Assembly (NCBI GenBank): GCA_029861535.1
Contig: JAOTZC010000006.1
Location: 877-64,876 of the forward strand
Direction: 5' to 3'
Origin: Gammaproteobacteria bacterium
Lineage (GTDB): Bacteria > Pseudomonadota > Gammaproteobacteria > Steroidobacterales > Woeseiaceae
DNA: 64,000 nt
Positions 22,209 to 56,780 of this stretch are shown piece after piece; positions within the stretch are counted from its first letter, which is position 1, and each line of letters opens with the position of its first letter. The position numbers were made by a program, and so were the translations under genes. Below the pieces are notes generated by a model that searched no databases, had not been told where the DNA came from, and worked only from the letters and a program-made list of their open reading frames with translations.

Positions 22209-22273
22209 ACGCAAAACCCTAAATGCCAATCTCGAGCGTTGCCGTTGAAAAGAGTTGAGCTACCGAAGGTGGG
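22209..22273 (+). other. partial GEMM-like duplicate (ACGCAAAACC - hairpin - GCUACCGAAGGUGGG)
   Basis: The 13-nt string TACCGAAGGTGGG (22261-22273) is identical to 22615-22627 in the riboswitch. ACGCAAAACC (22209-22218) differs by 1 nt from the riboswitch ACGCAAAGCC. The 40 nt between them can form a hairpin (27-33 with 52-57, 35-38 with 43-46). The GGCAAA element and an adjacent first hairpin are missing. Confidence 0.25.
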
Positions 22274-22542
22274 GTGGCGCGCACCGGCTCTCCTTGCCCC
22301 GCGCAAGACTCGCAACTCGCCTGGTCAACCGGAATGTGTTCCGTGCGAAGAAATGTTCGCGTCGCATGGCCGAGCAACAGACCGTCGCTCGGCACTAAGG
22401 GTCCAGCCATCAGGTCGAGTCTTCTTATGTAAAAACGTTAGATATGTCAAAGAGTTACTTGCTGTCGCGTGGCTCAGTTATGTGACGCCCATCACACCGT
22501 GCCGGCACCGTGTAGCTAGACTTCGACTTACAAGATCCCGCT

Positions 22543-22619
22543 CGATAACGGCAAACCCCGAGTAATCGGGGGACGCAAAGCCACGGGTCCCTGGGCATAG
22601 AGGGACGGCCGGGTTACCG
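22543..22619 (+). promoter_or_regulatory. c-di-GMP-I (GEMM) riboswitch aptamer
   Basis: Reads CGAUAAC GGCAAA CCCCGA-GUAA-UCGGGG GACGCAAAGCC, then a hairpin (GUCCCU/AGGGAC, 22587-22592 and 22601-22606, with lower-stem extension), then CCGGGUUACCG. This matches the remembered V. cholerae Vc2 core element by element (GGGCAAACC-AUUC-GAAA-GAGUGG-GACGCAAAGCC...GGGGUUACCGA). P1 is CGAUAAC/GUUACCG with 6 of 7 pairs. G-U pairs favour the plus strand. Confidence 0.8.
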
Positions 22620-22660
22620 AAGGTGGGAACGCCTGAACGTACGGGTTCGGTGTCGGGATC

Positions 22661-22683
22661 TTTCCTTGTTCAGTAACAGGAAA
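22661..22683 (+). promoter_or_regulatory. hairpin abutting the Shine-Dalgarno of the 148-aa gene (candidate expression platform)
   Basis: UUUCC(U)UGUU-CAGU-AACAGGAAA. The 3' arm ends 1 nt before GGGAAG (22685-22690) and the ATG is at 22695. A second hairpin, CUGAAC-GUACGG-GUUCGG, lies at 22633-22650. No U-tract terminator follows. Confidence 0.4.
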
Positions 22684-22694
22684 AGGGAAGTCCT

Positions 22695-23141
22695 ATGAAG
22701 ATTCGATACCTTGTTGTACTAACCTGTCTCATTGGCGCAGGCGCCCAGGCGGACGACATGGTCGTCTATCGCTGGGATGACGTCTGCAATTACTCGACGT
22801 CCACCAATTGGTTCAGCGTGGCGCCGGGGCAAAGCGCGACGATTGAAGTCGATCTCACCGGCTGTACTGAGGAGCAGATCGGCAGCCTGCTATTCTTCGG
22901 CAATTACGCAGCCAGGAACAGCGGCAAGCAGCTGTCGTCCAGGCATAAAGTGCGACTGCATCTAACCGCGCTCTATAGCTCCGGCAACGTGGCAGGGCAA
23001 ATGACCTCCGATTCGGGCTCGATACTCGCCGACGTCGCGCACCTCGACGCCCCCACCTGCATTCTGACTGCCGAGAATACGAATCGTAACAAGACAGTCA
23101 CGATTCGTCTGCGCGCGCATCTATTCGAGGCTGCGCCTTAA
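22695..23141 (+). CDS. small secreted protein, function unknown
   Basis: 148 aa with signal peptide MKIRYLVVLTCLIGAGAQA, four Cys and a beta-rich sequence. The SD precedes the ATG. It is the first gene after the riboswitch. Confidence 0.7.
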   Translation: MKIRYLVVLTCLIGAGAQADDMVVYRWDDVCNYSTSTNWFSVAPGQSATIEVDLTGCTEEQIGSLLFFGNYAARNSGKQLSSRHKVRLHLTALYSSGNVAGQMTSDSGSILADVAHLDAPTCILTAENTNRNKTVTIRLRAHLFEAAP

Positions 23142-23154
23142 GAACGATCGATGG

Positions 23155-23174
23155 ACCCGGCCGCAAGGCCGGGT
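23155..23174 (+). terminator. GNRA-capped hairpin after the 148-aa gene (weak or leaky terminator candidate)
   Basis: ACCCGGCC-GCAA-GGCCGGGT, an 8-bp GC-rich stem 14 nt after the stop. No U-tract follows. Confidence 0.35.
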
Positions 23175-23589
23175 TGCACAAATCTGTGCGGACCATCTGA
23201 AGCCTGCCGCCGATGTGGGCGTGTAGTGTCACAAAAATTTGACACAATACAGCGGTTTATTTCTTTTAACATAAGCTGTTGTGCTTGACTGTGCGTTCGG
23301 ACACAAGGAAACTGTCAGCAATATCAGAGGGCAACTGTGATCACGTAAATCCGATCCGGTGACGCGCTTAGCTCTCGTGCTTGAACAACAACATACCGCA
23401 TGAAGCGGCAAGAATAAGACGAAGAACGACACACGATTGATGCAAGACCGCATTTTTTGTAATCCAGACTGTAACGCGAGTAGGTTCGCGTGCGGTTTCG
23501 TGCGGGCAGCACAAGCCGGTGTGATCGGGCAGAATTCAAACGAACGCAAACAACAATAAATTCAAAAAAAGCTGATTGAGGGGAACGGC

Positions 23590-25971
23590 ATGATCACTTT
23601 TAAACCTATAACAATTCAACAAACGGCACTGCGCGGTCTCAGGCAGGCGATGATTTTCGCGGTGCTTCTGCCCGCTATCATTCTTGTCGCAGTGCCGACC
23701 GCGAGTGCTCAGGATGGCACCGGAGAGACAATCATAAACCAATGTATGGATGACCTTTTTCCGGGTAATCTCGGTTGTACAGCCAACGATGTCCGCGTTT
23801 CCGGCGTCGCCGATGTGACGGGTGACGGTATCGTCAACGAGGATGACATCACATTCGAGCCTGTTTGCGATATCGGAGCAGATCTACCTGGGCTTTCCTG
23901 TGACGGCAATCCAGGTATTTGTACGGTTAATAACGTCGCGACGCCAGGGCTCTGCGGCGACCGGTGTGCATTTCCCGGCGACACGACCAGCTTCGCGGCC
24001 ACGTTTGAGGTGGAGCTGAGTGCCCAGGAGCGTTTCGACATCGGCCTGTACTTCGACATCAATGCGGATCCGGAGGGTGATGGCGCCTTGACCGGCACCT
24101 GTTCCATCAGCACGCTGCCCGAAGTGGGGTCGTTCACCCGACCCGATGGCAGCACCGGCAACTTTGTCGACCTCGACACCAACTGTAACGGCGGCAGGTG
24201 CCCTCAGCCCGAAGATCTGTGTGGTGATATTGACAACGCCAACAACCCGATCTTCTATGATCTGAGCCAGACAGGAAATTTCATCGCGGCAGTATGTGTC
24301 GATCCCGACGGTGACGGCCAGCTGAATCTGCCCAACTGTACCAGCTGGCGCCAGTCCGGTGCGAATGAGGTCTGTACAGACCCCGACGATGCCTTCCCGG
24401 GCTCGCCATCCAAGTGTAACTGCGATCCCGAATTCCAGGTGCCGATCAACGTACCGCCCGCTGAGCTGCTAGTTGTAAAAACGGCGAACCCGACTACAGT
24501 AGATGAGCCGGGCGGGGTAGTGACATTTACTGTCGAGGTTACGAACACCGGCATTGATCCTAACAACGACGTAACCCTGAATGCGATGGTGGATGACGTC
24601 TACGGTGACCTCGACGCAGACGATCTCAATAGCCACACCTGGTTAACCAGTGACTGCCTGGATGACAATGATCCACCAGTGGTCCTTACTCCTAATGGTG
24701 GTACATACACTTGTATGTTTACCGGTACGGTCAGTGGCAACGGAGGTGAATCACAACGGGATATAGTGATAGCGTCGGGCGTCGACGACAACGGCAACCC
24801 AATCAGCGGAGATGATTTCGCCGATGTGGATATCGTGGACGTGCTGCCGGCTATCTCCGTGACCAAAACGGCTAATCCGGACTCCGTGACTGAGCCGGGC
24901 GCTAATGTGGAGTTCACGGTTGTGGTGAGTAACGATAGCACGGCCGACCCGCTGACCATCACCTTGCTGACGGATGAACGACCGCTCGGTGGTACCGTTA
25001 CTGACATTGGCAACCTGTGTCTCGATGGGAGTGACAACTCACTCATCGGTCAGACAATCCCGCAGGGCGGTCCGCCCCTCACCTGCACGTTTACGGTATT
25101 CGTGGATGGCAATGCGGGCGAGCCTGCCGAGGTCGACAAGGTCACTGTAACAGGTGAGGATGACGAGCCGCAGCCGAACTCGGTGAGTGCCTACGACACA
25201 GCCTCCGTCTCCATCAGCGATGACGAGGCCATGATCAAGCTAACCAAAACCGCGAACCCGACCTCGGTGCCCGAACCAGGTGGTGACGTGATGTTTACTT
25301 TGGTGGTCGACAACCTGTCATTGGTTGACCCATTAACTATTACGTCGCTGACGGATGAACGTCCGCTCGGTGGTGCCGTTACTGACATAGGCAACCTGTG
25401 TCTCGATGCGAGTAACAACTCACTCATTGGTCAGACAATAACGGCCGGGGGCTCGCTCACTTGCACGTTTGTGATTCCTGTCACAGGTGACGCCTCGGAT
25501 GTCCCGCCCGGTGAGACCGACCTGGCGACGGTCGAGGCCACTGACGATGACTTGCCTCCCAACACCGTCAGTGACGATGACGATGCGACGGTTACATTTC
25601 TCGACGTGCCGCCATCTGCGTCGCTCACCAAAACCGCGACCATGGTCGTGGCGACCTTCGACGTGGTAGTGACGAACACTTCGTCAGCGGAAGCGATTAG
25701 TCTCGATGCGCTGGTTGATGATCAATTCCCCGGAGGTATTCTAATCGGGGATATTGATGGCGTGACGATTTTGAATTCAACTTGCAGTGTACCGCAGACA
25801 CTTGAGCCCAATGATGGCCAACCAGGTGGCTTGGACGAATACACCTGTTCGTATGACGCCAAGATCAACACGTCACCGCACGTAGATACCGTGACTGGAA
25901 CTGTATCGGATAACGACGGTGGGTCTGTTATGCCATCCGACAGTGCCGAGGTGACGTTCGGCGATCCCTGA
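23590..25971 (+). CDS. large secreted Cys-rich protein with four Ig-like (DUF11/CARDB-style) repeats, adhesin-like
   Basis: 793 aa with a signal peptide ending ASAQ. The N-terminal ~290 aa carry more than 20 Cys and D-rich loops. Four repeats follow, starting (V/T)KTANP..V.EPGG.V.FT..V.N. Confidence 0.85.
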   Translation: MITFKPITIQQTALRGLRQAMIFAVLLPAIILVAVPTASAQDGTGETIINQCMDDLFPGNLGCTANDVRVSGVADVTGDGIVNEDDITFEPVCDIGADLPGLSCDGNPGICTVNNVATPGLCGDRCAFPGDTTSFAATFEVELSAQERFDIGLYFDINADPEGDGALTGTCSISTLPEVGSFTRPDGSTGNFVDLDTNCNGGRCPQPEDLCGDIDNANNPIFYDLSQTGNFIAAVCVDPDGDGQLNLPNCTSWRQSGANEVCTDPDDAFPGSPSKCNCDPEFQVPINVPPAELLVVKTANPTTVDEPGGVVTFTVEVTNTGIDPNNDVTLNAMVDDVYGDLDADDLNSHTWLTSDCLDDNDPPVVLTPNGGTYTCMFTGTVSGNGGESQRDIVIASGVDDNGNPISGDDFADVDIVDVLPAISVTKTANPDSVTEPGANVEFTVVVSNDSTADPLTITLLTDERPLGGTVTDIGNLCLDGSDNSLIGQTIPQGGPPLTCTFTVFVDGNAGEPAEVDKVTVTGEDDEPQPNSVSAYDTASVSISDDEAMIKLTKTANPTSVPEPGGDVMFTLVVDNLSLVDPLTITSLTDERPLGGAVTDIGNLCLDASNNSLIGQTITAGGSLTCTFVIPVTGDASDVPPGETDLATVEATDDDLPPNTVSDDDDATVTFLDVPPSASLTKTATMVVATFDVVVTNTSSAEAISLDALVDDQFPGGILIGDIDGVTILNSTCSVPQTLEPNDGQPGGLDEYTCSYDAKINTSPHVDTVTGTVSDNDGGSVMPSDSAEVTFGDP
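24853..25092 (+). repeat. intragenic repeat copy A (80 codons)
   Basis: ISVTKTANPDSVTEPGANVEF...DPLTITLLTDERPLGGTVTDIGNLCLDGSDNSLIGQTI...LTCTF. The nucleotide core 24967-25060 is near-identical to 25348-25441. Confidence 0.9.
25234..25470 (+). repeat. intragenic repeat copy B (79 codons, offset 381 nt = 127 codons)
   Basis: IKLTKTANPTSVPEPGGDVMF...DPLTITSLTDERPLGGAVTDIGNLCLDASNNSLIGQTI...LTCTF. Confidence 0.9.
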
Positions 25972-26124: not shown

Positions 26125-27456
26125 ATGAAGATCTATCGATTAAAAGAAAATGCGTTATCGTCACTGTCGCTGATTGCACTGGTCGCGTATGCGCATGTCG
26201 TAGTCGCACAAGGCGCAACGGCACAGTCGGCAACGCACGACGGCATGCCCGTGGGTTTCACGGACGAGGGGCATCCCTACATCGGCAATGCCGATGCGCC
26301 GGTCACGCTCGAGGAATGGAGCGATTACCTGTGCCCGTTCTGCGGCCGGCATTTCCGGCAGACGTACCCGCAACTACTCGATCAGTATGTGCGTACCGGG
26401 CAGCTCAAGCTCGTGTTCCGGGACCTGCCGCTGGCAAGTCTGCATCCGACTGCCGCGCTGGGACATGTGGCTGCGAACTGTGTCGGCAAGCAAGGCGCCG
26501 CGGCCTACTGGGCCATGCACGATGACTTGTTCGCGCGCCAGGGCGAGTGGAACCGACTGCCAGACCCGAGCGAATTTCTGGCCGGCGTGGCCGAGGAGCT
26601 CGGCGCGGATATGGAGGCCTATGCAACCTGCGTCGCCGATGGCGCGACGGCGGCACGAGTCGCGGCTAGCGTCGAAGAGGGCCGCGGGCTCGGATACAAC
26701 GGCACGCCGAGCTTTCGCTTCAGCTCGGCCGGTAGCGACAAAACCTACCCACTGAGCGGCGCGCATCCGCTAGCGCGATTCGCGCGTTATGCTGATCCGC
26801 TAATCGCCGGCGAAGAGCCGCCCGAGGAGCCGAAACCCAAGCCGCCCGAGCTGCCGCTCTGGGCGAAAGCTGAAGGATTGGCGCCCGATCCCGAGCGGCC
26901 CGGGTTCACCGTGGCCGGCGACGCCTACAAAGGCAACCCCGAGGCGCAGCTCGTGGTCGTGGAATTTAACGACTTCCAATGCCCGGCCTGTCAAAAGCAC
27001 GCACTCGAAGCGCAGCCGATTATCGACAAGGAACTGGTCGACACGGGCAAGCTGCTGTGGGTTGATAAACAAATGCCGCTCAGGGTGCACGAGCATGCGA
27101 TCGTTGCGGCTGTTGCCGCTGAATGTGCCGGCGACCAGCAGCAATATTGGCAGATGCACGGTTTGCTGCACGCCGAGTCTGAGCGCTGGGTAAACGACGA
27201 CGCCGAGAACGCGTTGCTTTCGCTCGCTGAAGAACTCGGACTCAATATGCAAGAGTTTCGCAGTTGTTTCGACAGCCGCAACGGCCTCGAGCGTGTAGTC
27301 AACGATCTTTACGATGCGCAAGGCCTGATAACTCGAGCGCCGACCTTCGTCATTCTGCAAGACGGCCGCGGCGCTATGACCGGACCACTCCCCGGCGATC
27401 AATTCGTGACGCTTCTATCAGAGCGGCTTGAGTCCATCGAAAATTCCAGCGATTAA
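26125..27456 (+). CDS. tandem DsbA-like thiol:disulfide oxidoreductase (two thioredoxin-fold domains)
   Basis: 443 aa with a signal peptide and two CxxC active sites (WSDYLCPFCGRH and FNDFQCPACQKH), each in a DsbA-family context. Confidence 0.85.
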   Translation: MKIYRLKENALSSLSLIALVAYAHVVVAQGATAQSATHDGMPVGFTDEGHPYIGNADAPVTLEEWSDYLCPFCGRHFRQTYPQLLDQYVRTGQLKLVFRDLPLASLHPTAALGHVAANCVGKQGAAAYWAMHDDLFARQGEWNRLPDPSEFLAGVAEELGADMEAYATCVADGATAARVAASVEEGRGLGYNGTPSFRFSSAGSDKTYPLSGAHPLARFARYADPLIAGEEPPEEPKPKPPELPLWAKAEGLAPDPERPGFTVAGDAYKGNPEAQLVVVEFNDFQCPACQKHALEAQPIIDKELVDTGKLLWVDKQMPLRVHEHAIVAAVAAECAGDQQQYWQMHGLLHAESERWVNDDAENALLSLAEELGLNMQEFRSCFDSRNGLERVVNDLYDAQGLITRAPTFVILQDGRGAMTGPLPGDQFVTLLSERLESIENSSD

Positions 27457-54710: not shown

Positions 54711-54727
54711 GCTAACGGCCAGAAGCG
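54711..54727. repeat. 17-bp direct repeat GCTAACGGCCAGAAGCG, copy 1
   Basis: Identical to 56781-56797. It overlaps the last codons and the TAG stop (54714-54712) of the 605-aa gene. Confidence 0.9.
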
Positions 54728-56529
54728 ATCATTGTGTGGCTCTCAAATTGCGCAGCCTCCGCAAGACGCCGCTGCCGGCGAGCAATAGCAACTGCGATCA
54801 GGCCAAGAATCAACAGTGCCGCCAAACCCGGATATTTGATCGTGTATACGATCGGTATCAGCATTCCTCGTACGATGGCACGCAACCAGTCACGGTCCGC
54901 CATAAGATCCGCCAATGGTGGTGAATGAAGGTAATAAAAGCGCACTAGGGCACGGCCGGGGCGGTTGGTCACCATGAAGCGGTCGCGAAAATCCCGTAGG
55001 CTGTCGAGATGTGGATGCAGAGGAGAGCCATAGGCTGCTGTAGCAACAAAGCAGCCACCACCACCGGAGAACGGGGTAGGAATATCCGGGAAGTCAGGTT
55101 CCACGCAACTGGAGAAGCCTCCTGCCGAGCCGCTAGCGCTTGGATTGTTGTTCGACGGATAGTATTCCGAATCGCTCGTTATTGCGCCCACAGAAATAGT
55201 CTGTGTCAAGGAGTTGTGACTTTGATAAAGATCCGACGTCACATCTATCGTTACCGTTTCTCCTACTGCGATCCCGGTGATGTTGCATTGGGCGGCAGGA
55301 GCGTTGCTGCAGTCGGCATCATCGAAGCGTAAATTTGGGCCGACGACTGGATTTTGCGTAATCGTCACGACGACGTTTCGGGCCGCGTCGGGTCCATGGT
55401 TGGTAATTTCAGCGTCACCTTGATATCGATCCTCTGAATTACAGGACGGGAAAATCGGATGCGAATCACTAGAGATTCCGAAATTCACCTCAAGATCTAC
55501 ACAGTGGACGATGTCGTTCTGGTGGATGACAGCGAGTGCCACATCGTTGGCATTATTGAGATCTCTTGGATGGCTTGCCACTGCGGAATTTACAACACAG
55601 GCAGCCGCTTGAAGATCGGTCACAACCGCCGGCACAACGAGAACCGCTTCGACGCCCACGTCCAAATCGCCGATAGCCCATTCTCCAGTGGCTGGGTCGT
55701 AGCTGCCAACACTTGTAAATGGGGCCGTGCCGGACGGGATACTCATCTCCACCGGCAGTTGATCGACAACTATTAAGTCTGAAGCCGTACCAATTCCAAC
55801 ATTGCTTACCTCTACGGTAAACTCGACGGGCTCATTCGCCATCGGATAAAGGTTATTAACTGATTTTTGAACATTGACATCAGGAACAGCGCCAGATACC
55901 ACGGAGAAGGAAAATGCCGTGATTTCAACATCTGCGTTCTCATTCGACGTCCTGTCACCGAAGGAGATGAAATTCTCTCCACTTTGGATAAAGCTATTTC
56001 CGGATGTCAATAAAAGTCCGTCCACAAAAAATTCGTAATCGCCGCCAGGAAGATATTCCCATACAAAGTCATGGAAAACCGTCGTATCCAAATTGAAGCT
56101 TTGGCCATTGACGATTACAGCGTTGTCGGTCATTCCGAGTCGAAGAATCGCCGCAAGGTCATAGATTTGAAAGTAAAAGCTCCAACCAAGGTTCCCCCCG
56201 GTTAGTATCTCGTGGCTAAGAACTCGCGAAGTAAAAGACAGCGTCATTGGTTCGCTGGAATTTACGATATTGTCCATTCGGTAACTCGCAGTAGCGCTAC
56301 CCGAACCGACGGTTGTTTGTAACAGGCTGGAACCATCCACGATATACGTTTCTTGTTCCATCAAGGGGCTTCCGCGATACGTCCAACCCTGATTGCTTGG
56401 AAGTGAGTTGAAGTCAAGCGTGAACGTTTCTGCCCGTACTTCCGTTACTAATCCCAGAAAGACAACTGAGAACGCAAGGATAGAGATCCAAATTACTTTC
56501 AGGGAAATGCGTCCAGTGATCATATTCAT
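54712..56529 (-). CDS. secreted repeat protein with DUF11-like Ig domain and C-terminal CFVATAAYGS...TM anchor domain
   Basis: Start moved to ATG 56529 (MNMITGRISLKVIWISILAFSVVFLGLVTEVRA), with AGGAG upstream. The mid-region reads VQKSVNNLYPMANEPVEFTVEVSNVG. The C-terminus reads GGGGCFVATAAYGSPLHPHLDSLRDFRDRF...TM...RRQRR. Confidence 0.85.
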   Translation of the reverse strand: MNMITGRISLKVIWISILAFSVVFLGLVTEVRAETFTLDFNSLPSNQGWTYRGSPLMEQETYIVDGSSLLQTTVGSGSATASYRMDNIVNSSEPMTLSFTSRVLSHEILTGGNLGWSFYFQIYDLAAILRLGMTDNAVIVNGQSFNLDTTVFHDFVWEYLPGGDYEFFVDGLLLTSGNSFIQSGENFISFGDRTSNENADVEITAFSFSVVSGAVPDVNVQKSVNNLYPMANEPVEFTVEVSNVGIGTASDLIVVDQLPVEMSIPSGTAPFTSVGSYDPATGEWAIGDLDVGVEAVLVVPAVVTDLQAAACVVNSAVASHPRDLNNANDVALAVIHQNDIVHCVDLEVNFGISSDSHPIFPSCNSEDRYQGDAEITNHGPDAARNVVVTITQNPVVGPNLRFDDADCSNAPAAQCNITGIAVGETVTIDVTSDLYQSHNSLTQTISVGAITSDSEYYPSNNNPSASGSAGGFSSCVEPDFPDIPTPFSGGGGCFVATAAYGSPLHPHLDSLRDFRDRFMVTNRPGRALVRFYYLHSPPLADLMADRDWLRAIVRGMLIPIVYTIKYPGLAALLILGLIAVAIARRQRRLAEAAQFESHTMIASGR

Positions 56530-56780
56530 GGTTAATCTCCTGCATCGCCAAATAGTGGCAGCCCTGCGATCTCGGAGACTTTCGTGGCATAGGAATGTCG
56601 CTGAGGAAGCGAGGATCCGTTGCTTTGGCATCCCTGACTATTGCCAAGTTTGCCTTTGTCATCCTCCAGATATTCCCATGCGGGAAGATGTGGTCAATCC
56701 TGGGATGTACTTAGCAGCAATGTCCGCTTTCACCCGAAGCGGTCATTCAGACACCATTGAAATCACGAAATTGACAGCCG

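Follow-up and report, generated by a model that had tools for sequence, protein, structure and literature searches.

A 64,000-nucleotide stretch of DNA (hereafter the window) from an uncultured marine gammaproteobacterium carries a gene for a 148-residue secreted protein, and a preliminary description, made from the sequence alone, placed a c-di-GMP-I (GEMM-I) riboswitch in its leader. This raises the question of what the leader RNA would sense, in which direction it would switch expression, and which of the neighbouring genes it controls.

An Infernal search of the entire window against 4227 Rfam families returned a single match at the gathering thresholds, an aptamer of the c-di-GMP-I clan (CL00126) on the plus strand, confirming both the class and the strand proposed earlier. 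Its score of 71.0 bits (E 8.3e-15) exceeds the gathering score of 59 of the top-scoring model, RF03167 (c-di-GMP-I-GGC), and orthologous leaders pass the RF01051 model. A sequence check located each of the conserved GEMM-I blocks named in the preliminary description where it had been placed. The P1 helix given there, CGAUAAC with GUUACCG, holds for its CG/CG part only; in the family model AUAAC belongs to a junction strand, and GGUU (22612–22615) pairs with AGCC (22579–22582) as the base of P3, not of P1. The aptamer ends 73 nt before the ATG of the gene. The stretch GCUCGAUAA, a candidate sigma-28 −10 box, is part of the aptamer junction, and its likeness to a promoter element was judged coincidental. 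The coordinates of all features are collected in Table 1.

Table 1. Features of the control region and of the adjoining genes, in window coordinates.
Feature	Position	Strand	Basis or remark
CRP/FNR-family palindrome TGTGACGCCCATCACA (TGTGA-N6-TCACA), perfect	22481–22496	+	Sequence and conservation
−10-like hexamer TAGACT	22517–22522	+	Conserved in all leaders
Inferred transcription start	~A22530	+	Sequence
Segment alpha AAGAUCCCGCUCGA	22532–22545	+	5′ end of leader; holds 5′ strand of P1; partners beta and gamma mutually exclusive
c-di-GMP-I aptamer	22541–22622	+	Rfam, covariation, invariant columns
P1 core	C22543-G22619, G22544-C22618	+	Family model
GGCAAA block	22550–22555	+	Sequence
P2 hairpin CCCCGA-GUAA-UCGGGG	22556–22571	+	Sequence
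P2 pairs	22551–22552/22575–22576 plus 22556–22561/22566–22571	+	Family model
GNRA loop GUAA on P2	22562–22565	+	Sequence
Junction strand GACGCAAAGCC	22572–22582	+	Sequence
P3 consensus pairs	22579–22592/22601–22615	+	Family model
Ligand-contact equivalents	G20 = G22550, A47 = A22577, C92 = C22617	+	Rfam alignment
Interhelical pair equivalents	C44 = C22574, G83 = G22608	+	Rfam alignment
Segment beta CGAAGGUGGGA	22618–22628	+	3′ strand of P1 plus extension (P1ext)
P1ext, 9 bp	22536–22544/22618–22628	+	Minimum-free-energy fold of window
Small GGAA-capped hairpin	22622–22633	+	Alternative fold of beta region; RNAalifold consensus
Segment gamma UCGGUGUCGGGAUCUU	22647–22662	+	Pairs with alpha; overlaps anti-SD
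P0+P1*, 14 bp	22532–22545/22647–22662	+	RNAalifold consensus
Anti-SD arm GGGAUCUUUCCUU	22655–22667	+	Overlaps gamma
SD arm AAGGGAAGUCCU	22683–22694	+	Contains SD GGGAAG, 22685–22690
Sequestor helix	22655–22667/22683–22694	+	Covers SD up to position −1 of AUG
Regulated gene, 148-aa secreted protein	22695–23141	+	ATG start, signal peptide, Cys31 and Cys57 conserved
GC-rich hairpin ACCCGGCC-GCAA-GGCCGGGU	23155–23174	+	13 nt past small-gene stop codon; no U-tract
CLIPPER/DUF11 surface protein (Ig-repeat), Cys-rich N-terminal region	23590–25971		Downstream of small gene
Double DsbA-like thioredoxin protein, Rcas_1661 family	26125–27456		After CLIPPER/DUF11 gene

Nineteen distinct leaders of the same gene family were recovered from metagenomic loci and aligned (alignment A2). 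All 19 possess the aptamer upstream of the gene, and conservation spans the entire leader, not the aptamer alone. Within P2 and P3, the two hairpins on the three-way junction, 97% of the cells are paired and eight pairs show compensatory changes, values reached by none of 500 shuffles, and the P2 loop varies in sequence yet stays GNRA throughout (GUAA, GUGA, GCAA or GCGA). In the bound aptamer the base of A47 sits between both guanines of the c-di-GMP ligand. Together with G20 and C92 (Vc2 numbering) it makes up the contact residues for this ligand in the c-di-GMP-I class (PMC4744006). Every one of the 19 leaders has the A47 and C92 equivalents, and that of G20 is kept in 18, the exception being the A of the leader shared by loci L005 and L023; the C44 and G83 equivalents do not vary. 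Given the covariance-model score, the covariation and the retention of these contact and interhelical residues, the element is, as far as its sequence tells, a genuine and canonical c-di-GMP-I (GEMM-I) riboswitch aptamer, and would bind c-di-GMP. One homologue with 50% identity, found in a Woeseiaceae MAG (CBDCZL010000018.1; locus L008, 5878–6003), has a 100-nt leader without a GEMM aptamer, and the riboswitch has therefore been gained or lost within the gene family.

The aptamer resembles Vc2, from the tfoY leader of V. cholerae (PDB 3IRW), in its class, in the G20/A47/C92 and C44-G83 equivalents and in the GNRA loop on P2. It differs from Vc2 in its P3, which is short and has no 11-nt tetraloop receptor (the orthologue L005, aligned to RF01051, shows deletions at the CUAA and UAU columns). 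Of the "type 1" GNRA/receptor sub-architecture, which is optional for the class, the loop is thus kept and the P3 receptor is missing.

The family labels given by Rfam vary across this set. Most leaders, the window included, are called RF03167 (GGC), two are called RF03168 (UAU; L018 204–284 and L019 4851–4931), and RF01051 is assigned to L005 380–460 (identical to L023 602–682; 62.4 bits) and to L027 1–74 (67.3 bits), against a gathering score of 35. The names GGC and UAU reportedly encode the bases at positions 20, 47 and 92. A true GGC (or UAU) class, with a ligand other than c-di-GMP, would account for the best score going to RF03167 (71 bits against 59) and for the two RF03168 labels. However, in the printed alignments a single conserved junction base separates the RF03167 consensus (GACGC-G-AAg) from the RF01051 one (GACGC-A-AAg), and the window (A22577; GACGC-A-AAG) and all 19 orthologous leaders have A there, not G. 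The window triad is G/A/C, without the U of the UAU type at positions 20 and 92 (G22550 and C22617), and the two leaders labelled RF03168 likewise have G and C at these positions. Near-identical orthologues moreover flip between RF03167, RF03168 and RF01051. What decides the label is therefore the shared short P3 together with the modelled P1, and not the binding site. I accordingly give almost no credence to an altered ligand class, and since the variant-defining G is absent, the aptamer is assigned to the canonical c-di-GMP-I type. With RF03167 and RF03168 it shares the highest scores, the modelled P1 and the short P3, but not their defining binding-site substitutions.

In gathering mode, two lower-scoring overlapping matches are reported beneath RF03167 in the window. 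The RF01051 scores quoted above come from orthologues, the window's own RF01051 match being hidden by clan competition; when P1 was removed in an attempt to expose it, by cutting the window to 22545–22618, RF03167 still won with 53.3 bits. Judged by the binding-site bases, which are canonical G/A/C, the GGC label on the window is an artefact of clan competition, and in this short-P3 lineage the variant-family labels cannot be relied on.

The leader shared by L005 and L023 (GAUAGAGCAAACC) has A in place of G at the position-20 equivalent. An A at this position is the main selectivity change of GEMM-Ib, and this c-AMP-GMP signature is seen in that leader only and is absent from the window (G22550). 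G20 is a selectivity factor among cyclic dinucleotides (PMC9262584). From its sequence, the L005/L023 aptamer may be an example, outside Geobacter, of a variant that is promiscuous or responds to cGAMP. The GEMM-Ib riboswitches of Geobacter share their fold with the window element, and A20 with this one leader, but the window has G20, and the Geobacter examples mostly use terminators.

No intrinsic terminator turned up when the plus strand was scanned from the aptamer to the start codon, as had been noted before, and this absence supports a translational reading. The idea of control over ribosome access also survives, the SD being buried in conserved pairing, but the geometry had to be redrawn: the second hairpin, which was described as ending 1 nt before the SD, in fact has the SD within its 3′ arm. 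Two strands are shared between competing helices. The alpha strand is common to P1ext and P0+P1*, and GGGAUCUU is common to P0+P1* and the sequestor; P0+P1* is incompatible with P1 and also with the full SD-sequestering helix. Pairing is kept in 94% of cells for P1ext, with one compensatory U-A (in L002), in 96% for P0+P1*, against 36–60% in slid registers and with no compensatory changes, and in 90% for the sequestor, against at most 73% in slid registers. Covariation in the three platform helices is not significant (shuffles match the observed values in 381 of 500 cases for P0+P1*, 79 of 500 for P1ext and 428 of 500 for the sequestor), because the strands are nearly invariant. Such near-invariance is expected for strands with two partners, yet is no proof of those partners. 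Two further candidates were discarded: P0 acting as a terminator, as L003 and L019 do not conserve the U-rich stretch that follows 22662, and a pairing of GUUCAG (22668–22673) with CUGAAC (22634–22639), which is specific to the window.

The two conformers of the window leader have almost equal ensemble energies (−69.0 versus −68.3 kcal/mol), with unconstrained probabilities of 0.42 for P1ext and 0.48 for P0. Forcing the aptamer core served as a proxy for bound ligand when the 19 leaders were folded with nearest-neighbour energy models, which leave out ligand energy, tertiary contacts, coaxial stacking and co-transcriptional kinetics; on forcing, the mean probability of P1ext rose from 0.26 to 0.84 and that of the sequestor from 0.40 to 0.68, while that of P0 fell from 0.53 to 0.06 and that of an unpaired SD from 0.28 to 0.13. 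In 18 of the 19 leaders the SD is less exposed with the core forced than with P1 forbidden (mean SD unpaired 0.30). In the P0 fold of the window, the leftover UUUCCUU pairs with an upstream purine tract, freeing GGGAAG, and the SD stretch is about 50% unpaired even in this "ON" fold. Some leaders depart from the common scheme: in L009 the SD-side arm GAUCCC is the same as the alpha sequence, both competing for the same GGGAUC, and L001 and a few others adopt alternative registers.

Because the forced aptamer fold moves 18 of 19 leaders toward SD sequestration, the switch is predicted most likely to be an OFF switch, with the SD hidden when the ligand is bound; the prediction draws on conserved complementarity and energy models, not on covariation. 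The platform is modelled as a three-partner switch, in which the very 5′ end of the RNA takes part. With c-di-GMP bound, P1 would be locked and lengthened by alpha/beta pairing, leaving the anti-SD arm free to pair with the SD arm, and the SD would be buried up to position −1 of the AUG, turning translation off. In the ligand-free RNA, the alpha/gamma helix would remove the 5′ strand of P1 together with the GGGAUC part of the anti-SD, and the leftover UUUCCUU would slip onto the purine tract AGGAAAA, exposing the SD and allowing translation. P1 length is known to matter for a stable ligand-bound state (PMC11705072), which fits a switch built on P1 extension. For Vc2 itself, translation is reported to be repressed through the masking of a distant RBS (Inuzuka 2018, as cited in PMC11705072), and both ON and OFF c-di-GMP switches have been described (PMC6366702; PMC9262584), so the type of mechanism is not new. 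Unlike in Vc2, the window platform is predicted to use the transcript 5′ end as anti-sequestor, and the cargo is unrelated.

The opposite sign would follow if ligand-stabilised P1 coexisted with an outer helix (22532–22540/22654–22662) in a four-way junction, the remaining arms being the hairpins 22622–22633 and 22634–22649, so that c-di-GMP would keep the anti-SD off the SD. Such an arrangement is sterically compatible, as the outer helix shares no nucleotides with the P1 core, and the RNAalifold consensus includes both the outer helix and the 22622–22633 hairpin; adhesion-related genes are also usually induced by c-di-GMP, and Vc1 is a positive element (PMC4744006). However, the P1 core alone comprises just 2–3 bp, in the consensus the P1 5′ strand is joined to 22647–22650 and not to the P1 3′ strand, and forcing the aptamer core leaves the outer helix at a mean probability of 0.06 (0.00 in the window) against 0.84 for P1ext. 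An ON switch is therefore considered unlikely.

The main output could also lie in Rho-dependent termination or mRNA decay, secondary to a ribosome-free or refolded leader/start region. The missing intrinsic terminator and the leader length of ~165 nt would suit this, and Vc2/tfoY shows both transcriptional and post-transcriptional effects, according to the account of Pursley 2018 cited in PMC6366702. Conserved and extensive pairing of the SD nevertheless offers the simplest read-out, and inspection of the G-rich leader gave no evident rut-like C-rich, G-poor tract, making this a rather improbable main output.

Upstream of the aptamer, the orthologues share a −10-like box of the form TAsACT, preceded by the palindrome at a fixed distance of 20 nt in each of the 17 leaders whose upstream DNA reaches far enough; the riboswitch-less L008 keeps the CRP-type site and the TAGACT box at the same spacing, despite lacking the aptamer. 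The centre of the palindrome lies ~41.5 nt upstream of the inferred start (A22530), from which segment alpha would begin 2 nt from the RNA 5′ end. A position of −41.5 is that of class II sites for CRP-family activators. A simple sigma-70 scan did not call the TAGACT promoter, because a −35 element is absent, and this absence fits a class II promoter. Taken together, TGTGA-N6-TCACA and TAsACT look like a class II CRP/Clp-type promoter. The regulator at this site could, I presume, equally be a c-di-GMP-binding Clp-type homologue of CRP. In the window alone, TGTGA-N6-TCACA with up to one mismatch occurs three times against 1.7 expected, no excess over chance. A second perfect copy at 25470–25485 lies within the CLIPPER coding sequence, possibly by chance. 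A mechanically called 108-aa ORF with a TTG start (22239–22565, plus strand) runs through the CRP-type site and the promoter into the beginning of the aptamer, and is almost certainly no gene.

This arrangement recalls gbpA of V. cholerae, where the Vc1 riboswitch lies in the leader of a secreted colonisation-type protein behind a CRP-dependent promoter (PMC4545359; PMC4744006). The two loci are alike in combining a c-di-GMP-I riboswitch with a secreted-protein gene, and in the window a perfect, conserved CRP-type site makes the promoter a putative CRP-type one as well. They differ in sign, Vc1 acting positively and the window element being predicted to act negatively.

The product of the gene matches a protein annotated as hypothetical in a "Gammaproteobacteria bacterium" MAG, with one relative in a Woeseiaceae MAG. 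Pfam and NCBIfam searches gave no family for the 148-aa protein, and its description as an uncharacterised small Cys-containing secreted protein stands. Its AlphaFold2 model is a 10-strand beta-sandwich (pLDDT 82, pTM 0.73), for which Foldseek returned only generic jelly-roll/beta-sandwich matches with TM ~0.45–0.5 (C-CPE, YPM, GOLD). Just 26 close relatives were found among 5.8 billion clusters, and a full profile search yielded 69 representatives among 1.84 billion proteins. All members are stand-alone proteins of ~140–180 aa.

The downstream Ig-repeat gene is probably not part of the cargo. In nearly all loci the small gene is followed, past its stop codon, by a strong hairpin of differing sequence (in L028 with a canonical U-tract), so that the CLIPPER/DUF11 gene probably forms a transcription unit of its own. 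In the window, this hairpin is probably the 3′ end (terminator) or a stabiliser of the small-gene transcript, and the riboswitch probably controls the small gene alone. The order small gene, CLIPPER/DUF11 gene, double DsbA gene is common to the window and L010, and in L013 the DsbA gene lies directly 3′ of the small gene, the double DsbA being suggested as a dedicated disulfide-forming partner. CLIPPER is an isopeptide-bonded stalk domain of fibrillar adhesins (PMC12617251). The 448-nt spacer before the CLIPPER/DUF11 gene contains an operator-like inverted repeat, GTGTCA-N8-TGACAC, at 23226–23245, and a simple pattern search of the other loci found none. A second DUF11/CLIPPER-domain protein (639 aa) is encoded at 54712–56631 on the minus strand, with no riboswitch match nearby.

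I consider it reasonably probable that a monocistronic small-protein gene has its complete control region at 22481–22697, composed of a putative CRP-type promoter, a canonical aptamer and a translational OFF switch. A wider and distinctly more tentative reading is that two second-messenger inputs converge on one small gene. A CRP-family activator at −41.5 and a receptor-less short-P3 c-di-GMP-I aptamer, in which P1 extension competes with a 5′-terminal anti-sequestor, would jointly shut off a lineage-restricted secreted protein of beta-sandwich fold, whose companions are an isopeptide-bonded CLIPPER adhesin and a dedicated double DsbA. The activator may be cAMP-CRP or a c-di-GMP-inhibited Clp-type homologue; among window ORFs of at least 230 aa there are no genes for c-di-GMP synthases, phosphodiesterases or CRP.

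A literature search found no paper combining "Woeseia" and "c-di-GMP". The interest of the locus is modest, and lies in the Rfam mislabelling, in a bistable platform that depends on the 5′ end and is predicted to be OFF, in the conserved CRP-type promoter and in the unannotated cargo family. For variant calls, it follows that binding-site positions should be checked before an altered ligand specificity is inferred; if the reading of the labels is true, Rfam would systematically be assigning canonical short-P3 c-di-GMP-I aptamers of environmental Gammaproteobacteria too often to its GGC and UAU "altered-specificity" families. The platform is compact and bistable, acts on translation as modelled, and is directly testable. 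For the Woeseiaceae-like sediment Gammaproteobacteria, which have almost no experimental genetics, the locus adds a well-supported member of the c-di-GMP regulon, and links an unannotated family of secreted proteins to c-di-GMP signalling.
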